Assembly (NCBI GenBank): GCA_963823335.1 | Contig: CAWGLD010000001.1 | Coordinates: 556,548-588,547 of the forward strand | Length of the DNA stretch: 32,000 bases | DNA from: an uncultured delta proteobacterium | GTDB taxonomy: Bacteria; Desulfobacterota; Desulfobacteria; Desulfobacterales; B30-G6 | Reading direction: 5' to 3' | In this document: in pieces, positions 11,945 to 26,048 of the stretch | Numbering within the stretch: the first letter of the stretch is position 1 | How the letters are laid out: each line of letters starts with the position of its first letter | Translations under genes and position numbers: made by a program | Notes under the pieces: generated by a model | What the model was told of the DNA's origin: nothing | What the model saw: only the letters and a program-made list of their open reading frames with translations | The model's database searches: none

Positions 11945-13351
11945 ATGAAGAACATGAGAGATTTTATCACAGAAGGTGAGAAAAAGGGCCTGTGTAAACG
12001 AATTTCAGCTGAAGTCGATTGGAATCTGGAGTTGTCGCATATCGCCAAACTCAATGAAGAGCAAAAGGGTCCGGCGCTGCTGTTTGAAAATGTGAAGGAC
12101 TATGACACACCGGTGATTACCAGTGTCTGTACCACCCCTGAAAGACTGGCATTTATCCTTGGTCAACCATTGGATTCCACGCTTGTAGATCTCTACGCGC
12201 ACTGGGCCAAGCTGGGGGACAACCTGTTGGAGCCCAAGTATGTGGAAAAAGCGGATGCGCCATGCAAAGAGAATATCATCACCGGGGACGACATTGACCT
12301 TTTCAAATTCCCCGTGCCGCAGTGGTATCCTCTGGACGGGGGCCGTTATATCGGGACCGCTCATTTCTTCATCAGCAAGGATCCCGAAACCGGCTGGGTA
12401 AACCTGGGAACCTACAGGGCTCAGCTATTGGGAAAAGACAAGATTGGCACCCAGTTTATCAAGGGCAAACATGCCGACATCATGCTGAAGAAATATCAAG
12501 CCATGGGGAAACCCATGCCGGTGGCTTCAGTAATCGGGTGTGATCCTCTGCTTTTTATCCTCGGTGCAGCACGCGTTTCAGCTTTTACTTCAGAATACGA
12601 TGTGGCAGGCGCCCTGCGCGGTGAGCCTGTAGAAGTCGTTAAAGGAGAAATCGTCGATCTGCCCATTCCGGCACATGCCGAGATCGTGCTCGAAGGAGAA
12701 GTGGATGCCGACAAATTTATGGAAGAAGGACCGTTCGGTGAATATACCGGGTATTATTCCGGCGTTGGTACGGATCCACGCAATTTCATGGATGTCCAAT
12801 GTGTCACCCATCGTAACAATCCGATTCTCTGGGGAACCACCGTCGGCCGGGCCGTTACAGACACGCACATGACCATGGCACTGTCATATGGGGCCACCCT
12901 TTGGCAACAATTGTTGGCCATGAAGATTCCAGGCTTGAAAGCGGTTTACTGCCCGCCGGAAGGCTCCGGACGGTTTTTGGCCATCATCTCCATGAAGCAG
13001 ATGTATCCCGGGCATGCAGACCAGGTGCTCACGGCTGCCATTTCAACGGAAATGGGTGCCTATGGTCTGAAAACCGTCATCGTCGTGGATGAGGATATCG
13101 ACCCCTGGGATATTCCCCGGGTCCTGTATGCCTTGAGTTTCAGATTCCAGCCCAACCGCAGTCAGGTCATCAAGAGAGGGCGGTCCACACCACTGGATCC
13201 GTCTCTGCCCATCAATGCGCGGGAAATTACCGGTAGACTTTTGTTGGATGCCACCATACCCTATGACTGGAAACACAAACCGATTCCCATTGAACTGGAC
13301 GCGGAAATGGTGAAAAGAGTCAAGTCGCGATGGTCTGAGTTGGGGTTATAA
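11945..13351 (+). CDS. UbiD-family (de)carboxylase, phenylphosphate-carboxylase alpha/beta-like
   Basis: 468 aa. VDWNLELSHIAKLNEEQKGPALLFE, EGPFGEYTGYY and KRGRSTPLDP blocks are typical of UbiD/Ppc-type carboxylases. AGGAGG lies 11 nt upstream. Confidence 0.85.
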   Translation: MKNMRDFITEGEKKGLCKRISAEVDWNLELSHIAKLNEEQKGPALLFENVKDYDTPVITSVCTTPERLAFILGQPLDSTLVDLYAHWAKLGDNLLEPKYVEKADAPCKENIITGDDIDLFKFPVPQWYPLDGGRYIGTAHFFISKDPETGWVNLGTYRAQLLGKDKIGTQFIKGKHADIMLKKYQAMGKPMPVASVIGCDPLLFILGAARVSAFTSEYDVAGALRGEPVEVVKGEIVDLPIPAHAEIVLEGEVDADKFMEEGPFGEYTGYYSGVGTDPRNFMDVQCVTHRNNPILWGTTVGRAVTDTHMTMALSYGATLWQQLLAMKIPGLKAVYCPPEGSGRFLAIISMKQMYPGHADQVLTAAISTEMGAYGLKTVIVVDEDIDPWDIPRVLYALSFRFQPNRSQVIKRGRSTPLDPSLPINAREITGRLLLDATIPYDWKHKPIPIELDAEMVKRVKSRWSELGL

Positions 13352-13385
13352 AAATAAAAACGCTCAATTTAGGAGGAGTTAGGTA

Positions 13386-13901
13386 ATGTCCGATACCGAC
13401 ATGATAGAAGACAAAAAGGTTCTGGTGGTTGATGATGAACAGGACATTCTGGAGGTTTTGGAAGAACTGCTGGATATGTGCCATGTGACAACAGCGTCGA
13501 CCTTTGATCAGGCTAAAACCCTGTTGGAAACCCAGGCCTTTGACATCGCGATTCTCGATATCATGGGGGTTGACGGATATCGCCTGTTGGAAATTGCCAA
13601 CAAGAAAAAGATACCCGCAATTATGCTTACAGCGCATGCATTCTCTGCCGGCAACCTGGTAAAGACCATCAAAGAGGGTGCCTATGCCTATGTTCCCAAA
13701 GAAGAAATCGGCCGGATCGCCGAGTTTCTTTCAGATGCCTTGAACGCCAAAAAACAAGGCAAAAATCCCTGGCGCGTCTGGGAGGAAAGACTGCCGTCAT
13801 CCTATTTTGAAAAAAGATGGGGGGCGGCCTGGAAGAATTCGGACCGGGACTTCTGGAACAAATTCAGGGAAAGCATCAAAACGCGGGATGGGAAAAAATA
13901 A
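13386..13901 (+). CDS. Stand-alone response-regulator receiver domain protein with a Trp-rich C-terminal extension
   Basis: 171 aa with AGGAGG RBS. VLVVDDE, phospho-acceptor AILDIMG, MLTAH and YVPKEE give the full receiver residue set. No DNA-binding domain. Confidence 0.8.
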   Translation: MSDTDMIEDKKVLVVDDEQDILEVLEELLDMCHVTTASTFDQAKTLLETQAFDIAILDIMGVDGYRLLEIANKKKIPAIMLTAHAFSAGNLVKTIKEGAYAYVPKEEIGRIAEFLSDALNAKKQGKNPWRVWEERLPSSYFEKRWGAAWKNSDRDFWNKFRESIKTRDGKK

Positions 13902-13912
13902 CGCAGTTATCC

Positions 13913-13934
13913 CCAACCAGGATAAACCGGTTGG
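13913..13934 (+). other. Stem-loop after the receiver gene (CCAACCAGG-ATAAA-CCGGTTGG, one bulge, no U-tract)
   Basis: Read directly from the sequence, 12 nt after the stop codon. Confidence 0.3.
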
Positions 13935-13980
13935 AGTGAAGCGAAAACCCTGGCTTGCCGGGGAAAAGATAAGACCTTTT

Positions 13981-14060
13981 ATCACGAAAGCACGAAAGTA
14001 CGAAAACACGAAAATTTTCATGGTCTTTTTCGTGTTTTTCAGATTTCGTGTTTTCGTGAT
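13981..14060. repeat. CACGAAA short-unit palindromic repeat (about 35-nt imperfect arms)
   Basis: ATCACGAAAGCACGAAAGTACGAAAACACGAAAA-ttttcatgg-...TTTTCGTGTTTTTCAGATTTCGTGTTTTCGTGAT. The left arm holds four CACGAAA-like units and the right arm their complements. Confidence 0.85.
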
Positions 14061-14158
14061 TGCTTATATTTTTTTGCCACATAATTTACAAATTTTACAG
14101 TGCTCTGTGTCATTTGGACTTTATAGATAAGCATGAAAAAGAAAGAAGGAGGTTTGAA

Positions 14159-15814
14159 TTGAAACCGATTCGTTACCAGAAAGATATGATCGATGAATTT
14201 GTGACCGATGGTTACTGGACCGAAGAGCTTTTCTATGACTTCTGGGATAGAAATGCCCGGGAAATCGGTAACCGGGAAGCGCTGGTAGACTCGAAATATC
14301 GCCTGACATGGTCTGAAGCCAAAAAACTGGTGGACGCCATGGCCATTTCCTGGGTGGAAATGGGAATTCCCAAACATTCCCGGGTCATCATTCAATCGCC
14401 CAACAGTGTCTACGGGTTTCTCGCCCGAATCGCCTGTGAGAGGGCCGGACTCATTTCTCTTACGGTCTATCCATACCTTCGTCAGAGGGAATTGGAGTAC
14501 ATGCTGGAGAAAACAGAGGCCAAGGCAGTCGTTATTCTGAACATCTACAACAAATTCAATTATCTAAAAATGTACACGGAGCTCCAGAAACAGTTTCCCC
14601 ATCTAAAATATTTTTTTCTTTTCGACGATGACGTTCCGGACGATGCGCCTGCGGGTACCTATTCGCTGCCCCGGATGACCCAGCTCCGGGCAGAAAAACC
14701 AGTGGACGCATCCGTGCTGGCAGAACGCAGGTTGGACCCGTTCTGGAACATCTCCCTGCTCACGACCACATCCGGCACCACCGGTATCCCCAAGCTGGTG
14801 GAGTGGCCCACCGCGCCCCGCGTCTGCACATCCAAAGGCAGATGCGCCATCTGGAACCTCAACCGTGACGACACCACCATGGCCATCGCCCCTCATGCCG
14901 GCGGAGCGGCTGGAACACTGACGTATTTCGCCGCCCCCATTGCCGGTGCCAAAACCGTGATGTTGGAGGAGTTTTCCGGCGAAGGCGCGCTGGCGCTCAT
15001 CGAAAAAGAGAAAGCTACGGCCATCGGTGTGGTTCCCACCCACCTTATACGGATGCTGGAGGCCGACGTCTCCAAATACGATCTGAGTTCTCTGCGGTTT
15101 ATCCGCTCGGCCGGCGGGTATTTATCACCCCAGGTGGCCGAAGAAGCTGAAAACGCATTTAAGGCAAGCATTACCAGCGACCTTGGGACCCAGGACAAGG
15201 GATCGGTGTCCGGGTGCAGCGTAGAGGATTCAAAGGATCTTCGCCGCAGAACCGTCGGCCGCATGCTTCCGGGCAACAAGGTGAGATTGCTGGACAAGGA
15301 CACCGGCAAAGAAGTGCCCGAGGGCGAACCCGGAGTTCTCTGGCTCAGGGGCCCCCACGCCCCGGCAGGATACTTCCGGGACGAGGAATTGACCGCCACG
15401 GTGTTCGACAAGGACGGATGGACCACCACGGAGGATATCGTCAAATTCGATCAGGGCTGTCTGTGGATTCTGGGCCGGGCCAAGGACATGATCATCCGGG
15501 GAGGACAGAACATCTATCCTGCAGAGATCGAGGGCCTGCTCAATGATCATCCCGGGGTATCGTCTGTAGCGGTTGTGGGGTATCCGGACCGGGAGATGGG
15601 TGAACGGTGCTGTGCCTACGTCATCCCCAAGCCTGGTGTGGATTTTTCCTTTGACGAAATGGTTTCTTTTCTCAAGGGGAAAAATATTGCCATGTTCAAA
15701 CTTCCGGAACGGCTCGAAATTGTGTCTGAGTTTCCCCTGGTGGGAGATTCGGGCAAGGTCAACAAGGAAACCTTGAAGGAACAGATCAAGGCATTGGTTG
15801 AGAAGGGGAGCTAA
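14159..15814 (+). CDS. AMP-forming aryl-carboxylate-CoA ligase (ANL superfamily, EntE/4-hydroxybenzoate-CoA ligase-like)
   Basis: TTG start at 14159 with AGGAGG 6 nt upstream; the ORF-track start at 14060 lies inside the palindromic repeat. Motifs TTTSGTTGIPKLVE, GRAKDMIIRGGQNIYPAEIE and C-terminal SGKVNK. Confidence 0.85.
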   Translation: MKPIRYQKDMIDEFVTDGYWTEELFYDFWDRNAREIGNREALVDSKYRLTWSEAKKLVDAMAISWVEMGIPKHSRVIIQSPNSVYGFLARIACERAGLISLTVYPYLRQRELEYMLEKTEAKAVVILNIYNKFNYLKMYTELQKQFPHLKYFFLFDDDVPDDAPAGTYSLPRMTQLRAEKPVDASVLAERRLDPFWNISLLTTTSGTTGIPKLVEWPTAPRVCTSKGRCAIWNLNRDDTTMAIAPHAGGAAGTLTYFAAPIAGAKTVMLEEFSGEGALALIEKEKATAIGVVPTHLIRMLEADVSKYDLSSLRFIRSAGGYLSPQVAEEAENAFKASITSDLGTQDKGSVSGCSVEDSKDLRRRTVGRMLPGNKVRLLDKDTGKEVPEGEPGVLWLRGPHAPAGYFRDEELTATVFDKDGWTTTEDIVKFDQGCLWILGRAKDMIIRGGQNIYPAEIEGLLNDHPGVSSVAVVGYPDREMGERCCAYVIPKPGVDFSFDEMVSFLKGKNIAMFKLPERLEIVSEFPLVGDSGKVNKETLKEQIKALVEKGS

Positions 15815-18010: not shown

Positions 18011-18712
18011 TTAGGCGCCCTCATCTCCCCCGGGAAACCCGGGGCTTCCGGCAATACCTGTTCGTTTGCGGGAGCGCGGGCCCGCGGCGCCTTCAGATCG
18101 CCAGTCCTGTGGTTTCCGCACCTCATGGATCAAGTGAAGTTTATTCTGTCGCTGAAGCCTTTCATAGATCTGCCCCCATGCACAGGGAACCTCCGGGTTG
18201 ATTTCACAGCTGACGCCGTTGCTTCCCCCGCAAGGGCCGTTCAACAGGCTCTTTGCACATCGGGCGATCGGACAAATACCGCCGGTATAGGTCAGCAGGC
18301 AGTCGCCACATCCCCGGCACATTTCCTGCCATAGGCCCGGTTCAAAAGAGGCACCAAGAAAGGTTGTGTTCAATGCCGGAATCACAGGCAGGGGATCAAA
18401 AGCATCGGCCAGGGTCTGTACACCGGCCCCGCAGGCCAGAGAGATAACGGCATCGGTCCCTTGGGGAAGCTCGTGATAGGATTGGACGAGATCCAGCTCG
18501 CATTGCCTTAATATAACATCGACGGTTATGGGTGACGGCTCGGCCCCGTGGTACACTTTGCGGTTGAGCTCTTGGGCGAGCATCTGCACCTCGCGGTCTC
18601 CGCCGGAAAGACACACGGAAACACAGCTTCCACAACCGACGATGGAAATTTTTTCATAACCGGAAATAGATCGAATGATCTCCTCGATGGGTTTGATATC
18701 ACCGACAATCAT
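18011..18712 (-). CDS. Methylene-tetrahydrofolate reductase C-terminal-domain-like Cys-rich protein
   Basis: 233 aa. CRGCGDCLLTYTGGICPIARCAKSLLNGPCGGS is the NGPCGG-type motif of the MTHFR_C family. An additional CGSCVSVC lies at the N-terminus. Confidence 0.65.
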   Translation of the reverse strand: MIVGDIKPIEEIIRSISGYEKISIVGCGSCVSVCLSGGDREVQMLAQELNRKVYHGAEPSPITVDVILRQCELDLVQSYHELPQGTDAVISLACGAGVQTLADAFDPLPVIPALNTTFLGASFEPGLWQEMCRGCGDCLLTYTGGICPIARCAKSLLNGPCGGSNGVSCEINPEVPCAWGQIYERLQRQNKLHLIHEVRKPQDWRSEGAAGPRSRKRTGIAGSPGFPGGDEGA

Positions 18713-18721
18713 GACATAGCC

Positions 18722-19102
18722 TCATTTTTTTTCCATAAAGTGGGCCTTGACTTTGAGCGTCAGGGCCGGCTTGTGGCGTTCGCAAACAGGCGCTTCAAGT
18801 TTGCCCAGCTTTTCAGCAAGTGTTTCTCCAAAAGCGGCGGTATAAATCGGCTCGCCACACACACGGCAGTGCTCCAGATCGAGGGAGATGACCTCATCCC
18901 AGCGGTTTTGGAGCATATATTGAAATTCGACGGCATCCTGAGGGCACACACGCCAGCAATTCCCGCAGCGGGCGCATTTTGCCATATTGTGGCGAAGTTT
19001 TCTCTTTTTAGCATCATCCTGAACATCGATGGCATTGGCAGGACAATTCTGTAAACAGGCCAGACACCCGTTACATTTGCTGTTGACCTGGAAAAAGTTC
19101 AT
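18722..19102 (-). CDS. 2x[4Fe-4S] ferredoxin-domain protein with a Cys-containing C-terminal extension
   Basis: 126 aa. CNGCLACLQNCP and CARCGNCWRVCP motifs. Confidence 0.75.
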   Translation of the reverse strand: MNFFQVNSKCNGCLACLQNCPANAIDVQDDAKKRKLRHNMAKCARCGNCWRVCPQDAVEFQYMLQNRWDEVISLDLEHCRVCGEPIYTAAFGETLAEKLGKLEAPVCERHKPALTLKVKAHFMEKK

Positions 19103-19103
19103 C

Positions 19104-19694
19104 TCAGTACTTCCTCCTTAAACAGGCGGATTTGCGGATATTGGCCGTTTGAAGCATGTCGGCATCGTCCCATCGCAATGCACCGGGTTCGCAAAAATGA
19201 ACACACTGCGGGTTTCCATTACACACATCGCACTTGAAAATCACCTGTCGGATTTCGTCGAAACCGATGGCCGCATAGGGACAGGCAGCCATACACGCTC
19301 GACAGGATACACATCGGTCATAATCCACCATGACCCTTCCCCAATCGTCATTCCAGACCATGGCCTCTTTGGGGCAGACAGCCATGCAAGGCGCATCCGC
19401 ACACTGCTGACAACAATTCGGTAAAAAGACATCACCCGTGTGCCATGCAATTACACGAATTCGAGATCGGGAAGTATCGATGTCGCCCAGATGGAAAAGA
19501 GAACAGGCAATTTCGCAGAGCCTGCACCCATTGCACTTTTGTGGATGAATTGTAATGACTTTCTGTGAGACGTGCGCTTCTTCCGGCCGTGGGGCCAGCA
19601 CGTTAAAGTCACCGTTTTTCAGTCGCTCCACGATATCTTCCGGGAGGCTGCTTTTTGTCTCCTGGCCAGCTTTGCAGAAACGCGTGTCGATCAT
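19104..19694 (-). CDS. Polyferredoxin with four [4Fe-4S] motifs (AorA/DmsB-like electron-transfer subunit), paralog of 22300-22797
   Basis: 196 aa. CNGCRLCEIAC, CCQQCADAPCMAVCP, CVSCRACMAACP and CDVCNGNPQCVHFC. AGGTGA RBS. Confidence 0.8.
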   Translation of the reverse strand: MIDTRFCKAGQETKSSLPEDIVERLKNGDFNVLAPRPEEAHVSQKVITIHPQKCNGCRLCEIACSLFHLGDIDTSRSRIRVIAWHTGDVFLPNCCQQCADAPCMAVCPKEAMVWNDDWGRVMVDYDRCVSCRACMAACPYAAIGFDEIRQVIFKCDVCNGNPQCVHFCEPGALRWDDADMLQTANIRKSACLRRKY

Positions 19695-19728
19695 GTTGGA
19701 TCACCTATTTCGTCACAACTTATTGTTC

Positions 19729-19734
19729 ATTATA
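19729..19734 (-). promoter_or_regulatory. Candidate -10 box (TATAAT on the minus strand) for the polyferredoxin operon
   Basis: Perfect TATAAT hexamer 35 nt upstream of the ATG at 19694, with no convincing -35. An alternative TTGACA(19783-19778)-18-TAAAGT also exists. Confidence 0.3.
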
Positions 19735-19930
19735 TTGAACGCAATATGACAGTACTTTATCGACTAAAATGAATCCTTGTCAACTATAAAATGATAGATT
19801 ACAGCTCTTGTCATACGTATGTTCCGTTTGGCCTATTTGCAAAACAAGCGTTTGTTTGAAGTTGTTTGCCGAAGCAGCTTCGGAACGTTGTTCTGACAAA
19901 CTGTCTACAGGGATTATGTGTATTTTGCCC

Positions 19931-19960: not shown

Positions 19961-20026
19961 CACACCATAATAATTCATCCTAATGAACAAACCCTTTTTG
20001 TGAAACAAACAGATGAGGAGCATGCC

Positions 20027-20332
20027 ATGGCCATCGACTCAAAAAATCTATCATCAGCCGAATCGTTACAGAAAGCCCGCACCTTCGGCAAAATCAGATG
20101 CCACAACCCCAGCTGCATGGAAAGGATGGAGCCGTCTCCCGGCGACGATCACGTCAAATGCGCAACCTGTGGCATGGAGTTTCGGCTCTTCTGGGTGCGC
20201 CCGGACCTGCCGCGAATCCGCGGACCGGTCTGGGATGTCAATCGTAAAATTGCGGAGCAGAAGTTGGCCGAGAAATTAAAAAAAGCCAGCCCGGTCTCAA
20301 AGAAAAAAATCAAAAAAGAGGGGGTATCCTAA
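20027..20332 (+). CDS. Small zinc-ribbon protein with a Lys-rich tail, translationally coupled to AOR
   Basis: Start set at ATG 20027 (GAGGAG 6 nt upstream). 101 aa. CHNPSC...CATCG forms two CxxC-type pairs. The stop lies 1 nt before the AOR ATG. Confidence 0.6.
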   Translation: MAIDSKNLSSAESLQKARTFGKIRCHNPSCMERMEPSPGDDHVKCATCGMEFRLFWVRPDLPRIRGPVWDVNRKIAEQKLAEKLKKASPVSKKKIKKEGVS

Positions 20333-20333
20333 G

Positions 20334-22274
20334 ATGGCATTAGATCGAAAAATTGCATACATCGATCTTTCCGAAGGCAAGATTGAATCCAAGCCGATCC
20401 CGATTGAAATTCGAAAAAAATACCTGGGTGGCCGGGGGCTCGATGCATACCTGCTGTACAACCATGCGCCCAAAGGGTGTGATCCTCTGGGTCCTGAAAA
20501 CCCATTATTGATCAGCGGCGGCATTCTTACGGCAACATGCGCCTCAGCCACGGCCCGGACACACATCATGGCCAAATCACCCCTGACCGGTCTTTTGGGA
20601 AGTGCCAACATGGGCGGATTCTTTGCCCCTGAACTGGCATGGGCCGGCTATCATCACCTGGTCATCACAGGTAAGGCAAAAAAGCCTGTATATATCTGGA
20701 TTCACAACGGCACCATCGAAATTCGTGACGCCGCGCATCTGTGGGGCAAAACGACCACGGAAACCCAATGGGCCATCCGTGAGGAACTGAATGACGATGA
20801 AATCAAGAGCGCCGTTATTGGTCAGGCCGGTGAAAACCTGGTGCGCTATGCCAATGTAATGACCGGCGTCAAAAATGCCGCCGGCCGGACAGGCATGGGC
20901 TGCGTCATGGGATCGAAAAACCTGAAGGCCGTGGCCGTACGCGGAACCATGGACATCAAAATCGCCCACCCCATCGAAGCCCTGGACCACAATAAACGCT
21001 TCATCGATCAGATCACCAGCGCCAAGGTAAACAAAACCCAGGGCACATTGGGCACGCCTTTTATATGGGGGGCTACCAACAGCTGGGGTGGTGTGCGCAA
21101 CCGCAATTTTCAATACAACCAGCTTGAAAACGCCGACGACATCGAGCCCGAAAGAATCGACGAGATCGCCACGGAAACCATGGGGCCCTACCACATGGCG
21201 GGATGTTTTGGCTGCCAGGTCCATTGCCGGGCCCAGTACAAGATTCCATCGGGACCCTATGCCGGAAAGTACGATGAGGGTCCGGAATACACATCCCAGG
21301 GAGCCTTCGGGGCTGAACCGGACTGCACAAAAGCGGAAACGGTTCTGACAGGCAATCACCTGGTCGATCAGTACGGTGTGGACAACCTGGAGATCGGCAG
21401 CCTCATCTCCTGGGCCATGGAGCTTTTTGAACTTGGCATCATCACCACCAAAGAAACCGATGGGCTGGACCTTCGATTCGGCAATGACGAGGCCCTGCTG
21501 GAAATGATTCACCGCATCTGCCAGCGCAAGGGCTGGCTGGGAGACGCCCTGGCCGACGGCGGCATACCGGCATCCCAGAAGATCGGTAAAAAATCCTTTG
21601 ATTATCTGATCCAGGTCAAAGGGATGAGCAATCTGCACTCCGACGAACGCGGTACACCTGCCCTGGCCCTCAATATTGCCACGGCTTCCCGCGGCTCCGA
21701 TCATCTGCGCAGCCGACCGGCCATCGATCTCTATCATCTTCCCGAAAAAGTGCTTCGCAAGATATATGGCAGCCCGATTCCCTATGAAGGCCCCCTGAGT
21801 TCGGAGCACACCGAATACATCGGTAAACCCTGGCAGGTTTTCTGGCAGCAGAACTGTTATATGGCCGTCGACTGCCTGGGAATCTGTAAATACCACACGG
21901 TGTTTTTAGGCGCGACCCTGCCCAACTTCGAAGACTGGCCCAAGGTGATCTACTACAACACGGGTCTTGAATTTACACCCCGGGAGTTATGGGAAATTGC
22001 CGAACGCTGTAACAATATCGAGAGGTTGTACAACCTGAGAGAAGGACTTGAACGGGATGATCCTGTCAAAGGCGACACGCTCAATCACCGCTATTTCGAT
22101 GAGCCCTTACGAAGAGGGGCTCCTGACATTGTCGGACTGACAATCGATCGAAAAAAGTTCAAAAAAATGGTGGATGAATTTTATACCCATAACGGTTGGG
22201 ACAAAAAAGGTGTCCCAACACCCGAAACCTTGCGTCGGCTTGGTCTGGACCAGGAACCAGCCCACCTACTATAG
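20334..22274 (+). CDS. aor: Tungsten-type aldehyde:ferredoxin oxidoreductase (AOR family catalytic subunit)
   Basis: 646 aa. N-terminus YLGGRGL, the [4Fe-4S] motif CFGCQVHC plus distal DCLGICKY, and EGPEYTSQGAFG (GPEYET-like). Confidence 0.9.
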   Translation: MALDRKIAYIDLSEGKIESKPIPIEIRKKYLGGRGLDAYLLYNHAPKGCDPLGPENPLLISGGILTATCASATARTHIMAKSPLTGLLGSANMGGFFAPELAWAGYHHLVITGKAKKPVYIWIHNGTIEIRDAAHLWGKTTTETQWAIREELNDDEIKSAVIGQAGENLVRYANVMTGVKNAAGRTGMGCVMGSKNLKAVAVRGTMDIKIAHPIEALDHNKRFIDQITSAKVNKTQGTLGTPFIWGATNSWGGVRNRNFQYNQLENADDIEPERIDEIATETMGPYHMAGCFGCQVHCRAQYKIPSGPYAGKYDEGPEYTSQGAFGAEPDCTKAETVLTGNHLVDQYGVDNLEIGSLISWAMELFELGIITTKETDGLDLRFGNDEALLEMIHRICQRKGWLGDALADGGIPASQKIGKKSFDYLIQVKGMSNLHSDERGTPALALNIATASRGSDHLRSRPAIDLYHLPEKVLRKIYGSPIPYEGPLSSEHTEYIGKPWQVFWQQNCYMAVDCLGICKYHTVFLGATLPNFEDWPKVIYYNTGLEFTPRELWEIAERCNNIERLYNLREGLERDDPVKGDTLNHRYFDEPLRRGAPDIVGLTIDRKKFKKMVDEFYTHNGWDKKGVPTPETLRRLGLDQEPAHLL

Positions 22275-22299
22275 ATTATGGAATGGAGAGGAAAAGACA

Positions 22300-22797
22300 A
22301 TGGAGAAAGTTCTATCTGTCGATTTTCAGAAGTGTACCGGTTGCCGTTTGTGCGAAATCATATGTTCGGTGATGCATGACGGTGTTTCCAATCCCGCCAG
22401 AAGCAGAATCAGGATCGTGAAATGGGAAGATGAAGGCCAATATATTCCCATGATCTGCCAGCAATGTGAGGATGCGCCCTGTCTGAATGTCTGCCCGGTG
22501 GGGGCCATATCCAGAGATGCGGATTACGGCTTTTTATCTGTCGACTACAATACCTGTATCGGTTGCCGTTCATGTGTGAGCGTCTGCCCTTTCGGGGCCA
22601 TGAACTATACCAGAATCGACAAAAAGATATTCAAATGCGACCTGTGCGGAGGGGATCCGCAGTGCGTGCGATTCTGCGAGATGAAGGCTGTGGATTATAT
22701 TCCATCTGATCGTATGGGTGCCGAAAAGAAAAGAGATGCGGCCACGCGTTTTTATGCCGCTCAAAAAAAGGCCACAGCACTCCAGGAGCCCTTTTAA
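22300..22797 (+). CDS. Polyferredoxin with four [4Fe-4S] motifs (AorA-like electron-transfer subunit)
   Basis: Start set at ATG 22300 (GGAGAGG RBS). 165 aa. CTGCRLCEIIC, CQQCEDAPCLNVCP, CIGCRSCVSVCP and CDLCGGDPQCVRFC. Confidence 0.85.
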   Translation: MEKVLSVDFQKCTGCRLCEIICSVMHDGVSNPARSRIRIVKWEDEGQYIPMICQQCEDAPCLNVCPVGAISRDADYGFLSVDYNTCIGCRSCVSVCPFGAMNYTRIDKKIFKCDLCGGDPQCVRFCEMKAVDYIPSDRMGAEKKRDAATRFYAAQKKATALQEPF

Positions 22798-22812
22798 CAC
22801 GGCAAATAAAAA

Positions 22813-24255
22813 ATGGGCATCAACACAATCAAATTACGTTCCGTAGGTATCGATGTCGGCAGCTCGACGTCGCATCTGGTATTCTCGAATCTGGTGTTGG
22901 TGAGGGATGAGATGTCCCCCTCCCGTCGCTTTAAAATCGAGCGCAGAGAGGTGATTTATGAAGGCCGGATCATCGACACACCCCTGCACGACAACGATAC
23001 GATTGACATCGATCGATTGATTGCATTTGTGAGGGATGAGTGCCGGCGGGCCGGTATCGATCCCGAAGAGATCGATACCGGTGCGGTGATCATCACGGGA
23101 GAAACGGCAAAAAAGCGCAATGCGCGCGAGATCGTGGAATCGTTGTCCAAAGATACGGGAAAATTTGTCGCAGCAACCGCCGGACCCAACTTCGAAAGCC
23201 TGCTGGCCGCCATGGGATCCGGTGCAACGACCCGTTCAAAGGACATGCAGAAAACCATCCTGTCCTGCGACATCGGCGGTGGAACCGCCAACATGGCCAT
23301 CTCCGTCAATGGGGAGGTTGTCTCCACAAGCTGTATTTCTGTGGGTGGAAGATTGCTGGCCATAAATTCCGACGGTACTATCCGCAAACTGGACAGACCT
23401 GCAAGAAAGATCATGCAGCATATCGGGCTGACCTACGACGTGGGGGATCGGATCCCCAAAGCGGATATGGGCAAAATCGCGTCATGCATGGCCGACGTGC
23501 TGATGGAGGTGCTCACCGGTCCTGCTGTCACGCTACTGGCCAAACAGTTGATGACGTCGCCCTCCCTGGATTTCCAGCATGAAATCGATGAATACTCTTT
23601 TTCAGGGGGTGTGGCCGAATTGATCTATGGGCCACCGTCCGATTACGGCGACGTGGGTGGCATGCTTGCAGAAAAACTGATGGCCCTGTTCCCCGATCTG
23701 AAGGCACCGGTGGTCGAACCGGTGAACAAGATCCGGGCCACCGTCATCGGTGCGGGAGCCTATTCATTGTCTATCTCGGGCTGCTCCGGATTTATGGATG
23801 AAAAACTGACCTTCCCCTTAAAAAACATTCCTGTGCTCAGGGTCGATGTAGAGCGCTCAAAACTGTCCGTCGAGCATGTCGTCTCCCAGGTAAATCTGGC
23901 CTATAAACGATTCGACTTACACGAAGGTGAAGAGACCGTGGCCCTGTACTTCAAAGATCCGGTTCAGGCATCCTATCCACGTCTGGAGCTGTTTGCAAAA
24001 TCGATCGAAGCCGCCCTGGTCAATTCCATTCAAAAAAAGATACCGATCATTCTCATTTTTGAAAAAGACGTCGCCTGCAGTGTCGGAAATGTCATTCAGC
24101 GGGAAACCGGTTTGAAAACAAACCTGCTCTCTTTGGACGAGTTGCTTTTAGAAGATGGAGAATGGATCGATATCGGCGCGCCTTTGGTTCATCGCCAGGT
24201 GTTTCCCGTAACCGTGAAATCCCTTGTGTTCCATTCCGACCCTTCAACGTGCTGA
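22813..24255 (+). CDS. EutA-like ASKHA ATPase (ethanolamine ammonia-lyase reactivase family) in a non-eut context
   Basis: 480 aa. SVGIDVGSSTSHLVFS, DTGAVIITGETAKKRNA, CDIGGGTANMA, ATVIGAGAYSLSISG and C-terminal PVTVKSLVF are collinear with E. coli EutA. Confidence 0.8.
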   Translation: MGINTIKLRSVGIDVGSSTSHLVFSNLVLVRDEMSPSRRFKIERREVIYEGRIIDTPLHDNDTIDIDRLIAFVRDECRRAGIDPEEIDTGAVIITGETAKKRNAREIVESLSKDTGKFVAATAGPNFESLLAAMGSGATTRSKDMQKTILSCDIGGGTANMAISVNGEVVSTSCISVGGRLLAINSDGTIRKLDRPARKIMQHIGLTYDVGDRIPKADMGKIASCMADVLMEVLTGPAVTLLAKQLMTSPSLDFQHEIDEYSFSGGVAELIYGPPSDYGDVGGMLAEKLMALFPDLKAPVVEPVNKIRATVIGAGAYSLSISGCSGFMDEKLTFPLKNIPVLRVDVERSKLSVEHVVSQVNLAYKRFDLHEGEETVALYFKDPVQASYPRLELFAKSIEAALVNSIQKKIPIILIFEKDVACSVGNVIQRETGLKTNLLSLDELLLEDGEWIDIGAPLVHRQVFPVTVKSLVFHSDPSTC

Positions 24256-24270
24256 CAGGATTTTTCCCTG

Positions 24271-24543
24271 TTACCCCCCTGCCAGCATAAGGGTGATCTG
24301 GATTTCATCACCATCCCCTACAGGTTTCCTGAGTTCGTCAGGGTAGGTGCTTTCCAGATTGAGGTAGATTTCGATCAGCTTGTGCAAGGTTCCGTCAGCA
24401 TTATACAGAACCTTTTTCATATCGGGAAAACGGCCGACCAGATCGTTGAGACACTCTCCGATGGTCCGGCCGGCGACCTCGATGGTTTTCTGGTTATCGG
24501 TGTACCGACGATGGCTTGAATGTATGTTGACTTTGACGCTCAT
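24271..24543 (-). CDS. MoaD/ThiS-family ubiquitin-fold sulfur-carrier-like protein
   Basis: Start set at ATG 24543 (MSVKVNIHSS...). 90 aa ending ...GDEIQITLMLAGG, with the diagnostic C-terminal Gly-Gly. Confidence 0.7.
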   Translation of the reverse strand: MSVKVNIHSSHRRYTDNQKTIEVAGRTIGECLNDLVGRFPDMKKVLYNADGTLHKLIEIYLNLESTYPDELRKPVGDGDEIQITLMLAGG

Positions 24544-24661: not shown

Positions 24662-25450
24662 ATGTCCACCCTCGAACCGGTCACAAAACAACCGGGTTAT
24701 CAAGCTCCGGCCGTTCATAAGGCTTTCCAGCTGCTTCGCACCGTCGCTGCCTCCCATAAACCTTTGGGACTCACCGAACTGGCCCAGCAGCTCGGGTACA
24801 GCAAAAGCACCACCCACGGACTGGTCCATGCGCTTTTACGGGAAGGCGCCTTGGTCCAGGAAGCCAATGGACGCGGTCTTTTCTTGGGCCCGGTGGTTTC
24901 CGACCTGACCTTTGACAGCTGGAACTACCTCAAAGTGAATGAGTTGAGCCAGCCGATTATCAATGCCATTCGCGATGCAGCCGGTGAAACGGTATTTTTC
25001 GGTGTTTTGATCAACAAACGAGTGATCATCCTGACCATCGCGGAGGCTGCCGTACCACTGAAGATTTCCGGATCGACCGGCACCAGCATTTCACTTTTTG
25101 CCGGCGCTGTCGGTAAAGTCTTTCTGGCCGATGCAAACATTAGCGACGTAAAACTGTTGCTGCGGAAAAATAAACTTCCACGCTACACACCGCTTTCCAT
25201 CTGGAAAGAGAAAGACTACCTGCAGGAACTGGAACACGTGCGCAAGCTTGGTTATGCCGTTGACAACGAAGAATATCTGACCGGAGTGAAGGCGGTGGCC
25301 GTGGCTCTCCACAACCAGAAGGGCCCTCCCATGGCGGTCTGGGTCGTTGGATTGTCCAGTTCCATGACCAGGGCAAAAATGGACTGGATAATCGACAGTC
25401 TTGTTGTAAAAGCTGACATGCTCCGTCAAACATTGGCCGAAAACATGTGA
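24662..25450 (+). CDS. IclR-family transcriptional regulator
   Basis: 262 aa. N-terminal wHTH KAFQLLRTVAASHKPLGLTELAQQLGYSKSTTHGLVHAL and a C-terminal effector domain with YAVDNEEYLTGVKAVAVAL. Confidence 0.85.
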   Translation: MSTLEPVTKQPGYQAPAVHKAFQLLRTVAASHKPLGLTELAQQLGYSKSTTHGLVHALLREGALVQEANGRGLFLGPVVSDLTFDSWNYLKVNELSQPIINAIRDAAGETVFFGVLINKRVIILTIAEAAVPLKISGSTGTSISLFAGAVGKVFLADANISDVKLLLRKNKLPRYTPLSIWKEKDYLQELEHVRKLGYAVDNEEYLTGVKAVAVALHNQKGPPMAVWVVGLSSSMTRAKMDWIIDSLVVKADMLRQTLAENM

Positions 25451-25451
25451 C

Positions 25452-26048
25452 ATGGAATGGAAGCGATTCATACAGGAACTTTATCTGCGGGCCGAGCCTT
25501 ATCTGATAACGAGGAATGATTCCGTTCACACCCGGGTTGCCCATGGCTATGCACTGCTTCTGCTCCAAAAGGAGGGCGGTGACCGCAACATCGTCGAACC
25601 GGCCATCATCCTTCACGATGTCGGGTGGTCGGCACTCAAACCGGAGGACATCGAGACTGCCTATGGGATTCGGGCCACGGGTGCAAAAGCGCGCGAGCTG
25701 AATCGTGTCCACGAAATCCAGGGCGCCGGAATTGCCGCAGAGATCCTCGCCGACCTGGGTTGTGACACCATAAGCATCGACAGTATCGTAAAGATCATCG
25801 ACCGCCACGATTCCGGAACGAGCCCCGATACATTGGAAGAGAAGCTGGTGAAAGATGCGGACAAACTTTGGCGTTTTTCAATAATCGGGTACTCTTACGA
25901 GTTGCAAAGGCAGGCCAGCACCCACACGGCAAGACACGCTTTTCTGTCCCAAAAGGTCGACAGCTGGTTTTTTACCCCAACCGCAAAAGCGCTGGCAGAC
26001 AAAGAACTTCGGGCGCGCGACAAAGAAAACTACAAGGGTTCGATCTGA
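25452..26048 (+). CDS. HD-domain metal-dependent phosphohydrolase
   Basis: 198 aa. H...HD pattern IILHDVGW, RHDSG and KDADKLW. Confidence 0.7.
   Translation: MEWKRFIQELYLRAEPYLITRNDSVHTRVAHGYALLLLQKEGGDRNIVEPAIILHDVGWSALKPEDIETAYGIRATGAKARELNRVHEIQGAGIAAEILADLGCDTISIDSIVKIIDRHDSGTSPDTLEEKLVKDADKLWRFSIIGYSYELQRQASTHTARHAFLSQKVDSWFFTPTAKALADKELRARDKENYKGSI

Follow-up and report, generated by a model that had tools for sequence, protein, structure and literature searches.

The EutA family takes its name from the ATP-dependent reactivase of ethanolamine ammonia-lyase. We aimed to account for a EutA-like gene found without such a lyase in its genome, in a 32,000-nucleotide stretch of DNA (hereafter the window) from an uncultured bacterium of the Desulfobacterales (assembly GCA_963823335.1, contig CAWGLD010000001.1, positions 556,548 to 588,547). 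The gene encodes a 480-residue ATPase and belongs to an island of genes built around AOR1, a non-canonical member of the aldehyde oxidoreductase (AOR) family of tungsten enzymes. The genomic association of the EutA-like gene with the AOR island is solid, and synteny, co-occurrence and putative operators all tie the ATPase to this island; from these comparisons of sequences we infer its function, for which we put forward the candidate role of a reactivase-family ATPase redeployed to a tungsten-type enzyme. The observations that carry the argument are membership in the EutA family with intact ATPase motifs, separation from true EutA in the family tree, conserved synteny, co-occurrence with the AOR ortholog, operator-like dyads common to both genes, and the presence of RNA over them.

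The island consists of two divergent operons and the genes that follow the rightward one, arranged as follows.

18011..18712, minus strand: MetV-like Cys-rich Fe-S protein (DUF5981 / MTHFR C-terminal domain; PF12225, 4.7e-35)
18722..19102, minus strand: 2x[4Fe-4S] ferredoxin of the divergent operon, 126 aa (Fer4_7, 6.2e-15)
19104..19694, minus strand: AorA-like polyferredoxin paralog, 196 aa (Fer4_11, 2.9e-14)
19725..19740, no strand: IclR-type operator-like dyad GTTCAT-N4-TTGAAC, with 1 mismatch to GTTCAY-N4-RTGAAC
19973..19988, no strand: second operator-like dyad, 39 nt 5' of the Zn-ribbon start codon
20027..20332, plus strand: small predicted Zn-ribbon protein, 101 aa (CHNPSC...CATC)
20334..22274, plus strand: AOR1, predicted non-canonical AOR-family tungsto(molybdo)pterin enzyme, 646 aa (AFOR_N/AFOR_C)
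22300..22797, plus strand: AorA-like four-cluster ferredoxin subunit, 165 aa, 16 Cys (structure matches, Cys motifs)
22813..24255, plus strand: EutA-family ASKHA ATPase of the AOR-linked clade, 480 aa (PF06277, full length)
24271..24543, minus strand: MoaD-like sulfur-carrier protein, 90 aa, C-terminal GG (TIGR01687 MoaD family, 2.7e-08)
24662..25450, plus strand: IclR-family regulator of the island (HTH_IclR + IclR_C)
25452-26048: HD-domain phosphohydrolase gene, 1 nt past the IclR stop codon

A preliminary description of this DNA had reported four genes, from Zn-ribbon to EutA-like, separated by 1, 25 and 15 nt, and a convergent MoaD/ThiS-like gene 15 nt past the last of them; these open reading frames were confirmed to the base. 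The MoaD/ThiS-like character of the GG-ended product also held, with a weak match to ThiS and the match to the NCBIfam MoaD family given above. A GAGGAG ribosome-binding site precedes the Zn-ribbon gene. The 15-nt spacer between the ferredoxin and EutA-like genes is A-rich, with no clear Shine-Dalgarno sequence. The divergent operon opens with the AorA-like polyferredoxin gene, continues with the 126-aa ferredoxin gene and ends with the MetV-like gene. This second operon is an optional part of the island, the core being formed by the Zn-ribbon, AOR and four-cluster ferredoxin genes. Upstream of it lies a phenol-carboxylation cluster, which we considered as part of the unit and rejected, as it is missing from the related loci. 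The HD-domain phosphohydrolase gene is kept within the genus only (G001, G002).

Across the clade of related ATPases, island genes flank the EutA-like gene in 30 of 35 loci and in three arrangements: after the AorA-like ferredoxin gene, after the MetV-like gene, or with the IclR gene. As the neighborhood recurs at this frequency, the arrangement is far from chance. Conserved EutA-AOR synteny in genomes lacking eutBC was a check that the preliminary description had proposed; the synteny is conserved in these loci, and eight of nine related carriers lack EutB. An AOR ortholog was found within a few kb in 10 of 11 genomes drawn from relatives and phylum samples. The remaining 24 loci came from an order-wide sample and were inspected over 1.5-kb flanks; within that reach the gene stood behind the AorA-like ferredoxin gene in nine, behind the MetV-like gene in another nine (a position also seen in G024, G032, G009 and G017), and beside the IclR gene, with or without the Zn-ribbon and AOR genes, in four, while the last two, both from the genus of G025, had no island gene in reach. 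The gap between the MetV-like and EutA-like genes is sometimes 5-32 nt. On metagenome contigs the order runs IclR, polyferredoxin, small protein, AOR, ferredoxin, EutA-like, MoaD and ThiF. The EutA-like gene thus alternates between two operons across genomes, and the synteny spans many Desulfobacterales families; linkage that is kept through rearrangement is a classical sign of a functional link. The association is also specific, in that the gene stands beside only 1 of the 14 AOR-family paralogs of its genome. A search of a collection of genome contigs for related loci returned only one close relative.

Co-occurrence was evaluated in a 401-genome sample of the order, in which carriers were called at an identity of at least 61% to the ATPase clade (48 genomes) and AOR orthologs at an identity of at least 75% (82 genomes). 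An AOR ortholog was present in 43 of the 48 carriers and in 39 of the 353 non-carriers (Fisher P about 1e-29, a value inflated by shared ancestry). The five carriers without an ortholog may have been missed, because only three AOR candidates were scored per genome. In one complete genome, the stretch G779:C1:2764982-2770021 contains a truncated AOR ortholog (residues 1-502) and, at a distance of 3 kb, a 65-residue EutA-like remnant, and an intact second island is found at 5.67 Mb; the damaged AOR/EutA-like pair seems to decay together.

Shared regulation points in the same direction. The two dyads lie in the 332-bp divergent control region, each with one mismatch to GTTCAY-N4-RTGAAC, and such dyads occur genome-wide at a density of 0.009 per kb. 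Most related loci have a pair of dyads ahead of the AOR operon, and in L073, L068 and L014 dyads precede an operon that contains the IclR and EutA-like genes. An IclR regulator adjoins the island in nearly all loci, and we consider the dyads putative IclR-type operators common to the AOR and EutA-like units. Contigs of an estuary metatranscriptome, at about 99% identity, cover the AOR, ferredoxin and EutA-like genes and bridge both junctions (AOR/ferredoxin, 21782-22498; ferredoxin/EutA-like, 22470-23297). Depth was similar over the three genes and, in run X9, about zero in the promoter gap, a pattern that agrees with co-transcription. The strain in run X9 carries one additional A at 22807, in the ferredoxin/EutA-like spacer. 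Taken together, synteny, co-occurrence, operators and RNA contigs connect the EutA-like gene with the AOR locus rather than with an ethanolamine lyase, so that the central observation of the preliminary description stands.

The ATPase itself matches PF06277 along its length (457.7 bits, 6.6e-137, residues 7-474 in Pfam), and an AF2 model built with 76 homologs (mean pLDDT 90) superposes on E. coli EutA with a TM score of 0.89 at 33% sequence identity. In the 76-sequence alignment, little or no variation is seen at G12, D14, G16, D153, G155-G157, T158 and G265-G266, and the glycines and aspartates of the phosphate-1, phosphate-2 and adenosine motifs are all kept. By these measures, the protein is predicted to be a full-length EutA-family ATPase with its catalytic motifs intact. 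Solved structures gave generic ASKHA matches only when searched by fold, and no match when searched by sequence. Although databases name its homologs EutA, it scores 392 bits against the NCBIfam EutA equivalog, whose cut-off is 598, and falls under the cut-offs of the other three models as well. The close homologs all derive from metagenomes or metagenome-assembled genomes of uncultured bacteria, and no cultured carrier was found among them.

Searches of the entire genome (4.37 Mb, 93.9% complete) turned up neither EutB nor EutC. The absence of eutB and eutC from the window, reported in the preliminary description, therefore extends to the genome as assembled, which speaks against the possibility it had left, that eutBC lie immediately outside the window. 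The genome holds a single EutA-family gene, and EutB is likewise absent in eight of nine related genomes that carry the EutA-like gene. In a diol-dehydratase search, the control genomes themselves were silent. In a FastTree phylogeny (101 rows, local supports, no bootstrap), the AOR-linked ATPases form one monophyletic Desulfobacterales clade (support 100) inside a superclade that is not associated with eut genes. Sequences from Asgard archaea make up its sister clade; beyond this come a small number of archaeal and unknown sequences and, next, a large cupin-associated clade. The entire superclade is split (support 100) from E. coli EutA, PduL-fused EutA and the eutB-adjacent EutA of G002 and G023. 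Because the tree separates EutB-linked EutA from the AOR-linked clade, the true eutA of Desulfobacterales is a different paralog, located beside eutB and 27-33% identical. The best explanation is that the 480-residue protein has departed from the ethanolamine system and is now an accessory of an IclR-controlled Desulfobacterales island.

Two relatives within the superclade deserve description. The Asgard sister clade (P0121-P0129; L089 7001-9040, L090 7001-9496) comprises sequences from Lokiarchaeota, Hermodarchaeota and Promethearchaeota that carry an N-terminal Zn-finger-like extension of roughly 200 aa with a CxxC...HH motif, and a conserved 119-aa gene lies divergently upstream. We considered a Rosetta-stone fusion, in which this extension would correspond to the Zn-ribbon protein of the island, and rejected it (hhalign probability 0.9%); BLAST of the extension against the MetV-like protein returned nothing. 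Members of the large clade are 34-41% identical to the window protein and occur in 3-4 copies per genome (L039 and L041-L044 in G162 and G329; also G622, G652, G677, G698, G718 and G738). In four of the five loci inspected in G162 and G329, the neighboring gene encodes a Cupin_2 protein of 360-410 aa, and UbiD, MFS and GntR genes lie nearby; this is a second use of the EutA family apart from eut.

The enzyme at the center of the island, AOR1, matches both AOR-family domains in Pfam (AFOR_N, 1.2e-78; AFOR_C, 2.5e-102), and its best solved relatives are 1AOR, 9MQX and 8C0Z. In the 1AOR alignment, its CxxCxxxC motif and distal Cys align with Cys288/291/295/494 of Pf AOR. A 2025 review names four residues of the second shell as conserved, Thr243, Glu313, Tyr427 and His448, of which Glu313 and Tyr427 take part in the proposed mechanism (PMC12096430). 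AOR1 keeps the equivalents of Thr243 and His448, and carries Thr320 in place of Glu313 and Ser436 in place of Tyr427, an altered signature that is identical in 23 of 23 orthologs. Because two of the four active-site shell residues are replaced, AOR1 is non-canonical: it belongs to the AOR family but not to AOR sensu stricto, the broad-spectrum aldehyde oxidoreductases. The label "tungsten-type AOR" that it had initially been given needs this correction. Among the 14 AFOR_N genes of the genome, 9 of the 13 other paralogs keep the Glu. No PEYE motif is present in two paralogs, C5:436488 and C5:284602, which may be BamB-like.

The ferredoxin encoded downstream of AOR1 has 16 Cys in four 4Fe-4S motifs and resembles the corresponding subunits of solved complexes (9mqx_E, 1.9e-43; 8c0z_C, which is AorA, 4.8e-41); the polyferredoxin paralog of the divergent operon (19104..19694) is 43-47% identical to it, and the 126-aa ferredoxin is kept beside the island in relatives. 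Pfam and NCBIfam searches revealed no gene for a flavoprotein or pyridine-nucleotide oxidoreductase, and so none for the FAD subunit AorC, between 18011 and 26048. The Zn-ribbon protein has no match in either library. Its orthologs (61-86% identical) stand ahead of AOR in all loci, whether or not the EutA-like gene is there, and its residues 1-73 are conserved throughout the orthologous islands. The MoaD-like gene is conserved by the island; some metagenome loci carry MoaD together with ThiF/MoeB, and MoaD and ThiF genes can follow directly behind the EutA-like gene. The MoaD-like aorD/aorE of Aromatoleum are regarded as maturation factors of the tungsten cofactor (PMC6365974). In several loci (L032 3659-5248, L049, L050, L081, L082), the first gene of the divergent operon is an additional AOR-like one, shorter than AOR1 and in parts 30-50% identical to it; the window has no such gene, so that this operon is headless here. 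MetV normally partners methylene-tetrahydrofolate reductase, and in L080, whose genome lacks the ATPase, the MetV-like gene is followed by one with a homocysteine S-methyltransferase domain (13223-14359).

The preliminary description had further proposed that the EutA-like protein takes the place of the usual third AOR subunit, and this part does not hold. The EutA-like gene is missing from 39 of the 82 genomes with an AOR ortholog, and for this reason the ATPase is not a replacement subunit; among the inspected loci, even the complete island including the second operon occurs without it, and where the gene is present it alternates between operons. Neither is the locus that of an AorABC-type enzyme in which one subunit was exchanged, as the gene order differs, the FAD subunit is absent and half of the active-site shell residues are replaced. 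Optional presence instead fits a helper, and eutA itself is dispensable in some organisms with eutBC, for example Pelobacter carbinolicus (PMC3543383).

Within these bounds, the reading we favor, at somewhat short of even odds, is that the ATPase most likely assists the AOR complex as an optional, ATP-driven chaperone or reactivase. The only biochemical precedent comes from EutA, the only characterized family member, which uses ATP to open ethanolamine ammonia-lyase and swap a dead, tightly bound cofactor. By analogy, the EutA-like ATPase would bind the AOR complex, and ATP binding and hydrolysis would open it or hold it open, allowing the pterin cofactor to be inserted, repaired or exchanged following oxidative or turnover inactivation. 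Both the contact with the complex and the activity itself we infer from the combination of optional, lineage-specific presence, MoaD/ThiF neighbors, specificity for 1 of 14 paralogs and an intact ATPase site, which is why we favor a chaperone or reactivase. A bolder form of this proposal, in which the protein would be the first dedicated ATP-dependent chaperone or reactivase of a tungsten (pyranopterin) enzyme, loading or exchanging the tungstopterin of a non-canonical AOR, we regard as possible, at roughly one chance in three. Such a role of a EutA-family ATPase at a tungsten enzyme has not been described: in the literature we found no relevant connection of EutA with AOR or with tungsten enzymes, and the Desulfatiglans phenol paper does not mention the island.

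Several observations weigh against this proposal. About half of the orthologous islands operate without the ATPase, and in about 13 loci the gene immediately upstream encodes the MetV-like protein, not AOR. In the genus of G025, G498 and G547, the gene is unlinked, with no dyad nearby and with AraC, AHAS small subunit and radical SAM protein genes as neighbors. The closest relatives of the ATPase, those of Asgard archaea, stand alone, with neither AOR nor eutBC in the vicinity. The co-occurrence statistic is too favorable, since related genomes do not count as independent, and contigs from an RNA library, in which DNA carry-over is possible, are no proof of a single transcript. We know of no chaperone or reactivase for any AOR-family enzyme. 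Chaperones, maturation factors and reactivation also go unmentioned in the 2025 review of tungsten enzymes (PMC12096430).

Another candidate client is the island's set of Fe-S proteins for electron transfer, which comprises the polyferredoxins, the 126-aa ferredoxin and the MetV-like DUF5981 protein; for these the ATPase might provide assembly, repair or a docking gate. The position directly behind the MetV-like gene, in the four named genomes and 9 of the 24 further loci, would be explained in this way; elsewhere, however, the gene follows the AorA-like ferredoxin gene with no DUF5981 operon in reach (G178, G239 and metagenome loci), and the DUF5981 operon is unchanged where the ATPase is missing (L080-L082, L087), leaving this explanation unlikely, though the best of those that compete with a chaperone or reactivase of AOR. 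We give a slightly lower probability to a metabolic enzyme, that is, an ASKHA-type kinase or ATP-dependent activator acting on a substrate or product of AOR such as a carboxylate. Carboxylate kinases do occur among ASKHA proteins, the altered shell of AOR1 leaves room for different chemistry, and the superclade is also paired with unrelated partners such as the cupin proteins. Nevertheless, all 480 residues superpose on the reactivase EutA, whereas acetate and sugar kinases reach a TM score of only about 0.3, and presence in half of the islands would be odd for a pathway step.

The two-gene IclR/EutA-like operon behind dyads in L014, L068 and L073, which in L014 persists with no AOR within 8 kb, raises the prospect of a signaling or sensing partner of IclR, for instance an ATP-dependent modulator of repression. 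We judge this improbable, given that IclR regulates the island in many genomes lacking the ATPase and that we know of no EutA-family member in regulation. Marginally less probable is an ATP-driven electron activator that, like the HgdC/BcrAD "archerases", would deliver low-potential electrons to the tungsten enzyme, an option raised in the preliminary description. It would suit a ferredoxin-rich island, the very low potentials required by AOR-family chemistry and the ASKHA fold common to HgdC and the ATPases of class I benzoyl-CoA reductase, but is disfavored because the protein has no Fe-S motif: we found neither CxxC nor any other cluster-binding motif, and the only cysteines conserved clade-wide are C152, C174 and C422, the first two of which adjoin, by sequence position, the phosphate-2 strand of the ATP site. 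Pfam gave no significant BcrAD_BadFG match, and an obligate energy coupler ought not to be absent from 39 of 82 islands. Least probable of all is continued reactivation of an adenosylcobalamin enzyme encoded elsewhere, with an incidental neighborhood, as the database names and the one characterized family member would have it, since EutB and EutC were not found in the genome, eight of nine related carriers lack EutB, true eutA is a distinct paralog and all lines of linkage lead to the AOR island.

A chaperone or reactivase of the AOR complex, if borne out, would have consequences beyond this locus. AOR-family enzymes are extremely oxygen-sensitive and are sought for acid-to-aldehyde and alcohol biocatalysis, and to our knowledge no dedicated assembly or repair factor has been described for them. 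As an ATPase from a reactivase family that is conserved, expressed and linked to a single AOR subfamily, the protein offers a testable helper candidate that could explain the upkeep of such enzymes in sediment sulfate reducers and aid their heterologous production. In that event, the reactivase principle of B12 enzymes would apply to another, unrelated kind of buried cofactor as well. The name "ethanolamine ammonia-lyase reactivating factor EutA" is probably wrong for thousands of metagenomic proteins. The partner AOR, with its altered active-site shell, is widespread in marine sediment bacteria.

Among known systems, EutA of E. coli and Salmonella (P76551) has the full-length fold and ATPase motifs in common with the window protein, and is probably an optional helper too, as eutA is missing in some organisms with eutBC. 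The window protein differs in its separate clade, its scores below the equivalog cut-offs, the absence of eutBC from its genome and its neighbor, a tungsten-type AOR island, whose enzyme as a client would bear pterin instead of cobalamin. AorABC(DE) of Aromatoleum aromaticum (8C0Z; PMC6365974, PMC10413684) resembles the island in its AorB-like subunit (1.6e-82), its AorA-like ferredoxin (4.8e-41) and the MoaD-like maturation genes alongside. In contrast, the window has no AorC, places AOR before the ferredoxin, and adds a Zn-ribbon gene and a EutA-family ATPase, and the equivalents of Glu313 and Tyr427 are replaced. Closer in composition are the two-subunit AOR/WOR-type enzymes (9MQX, WOR5 6X1O, Wor1LS in PMC12096430), which, as here, combine a catalytic subunit with a four-cluster ferredoxin and do without AorC; these complexes work with HydABC-like modules or free ferredoxin, and have neither an ASKHA ATPase nor a Zn-ribbon partner. 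HgdC and BcrAD have the ASKHA fold in common with the window ATPase, but their [4Fe-4S] cluster bridges two monomers, and no equivalent cysteine pair is seen here. DdrAB and GdrAB, Hsp70-like ATPases, have B12 enzymes as clients, which they open to let a damaged cofactor leave. Although their family and subunit make-up differ, they provide the working model for the ATPase of the AOR island.

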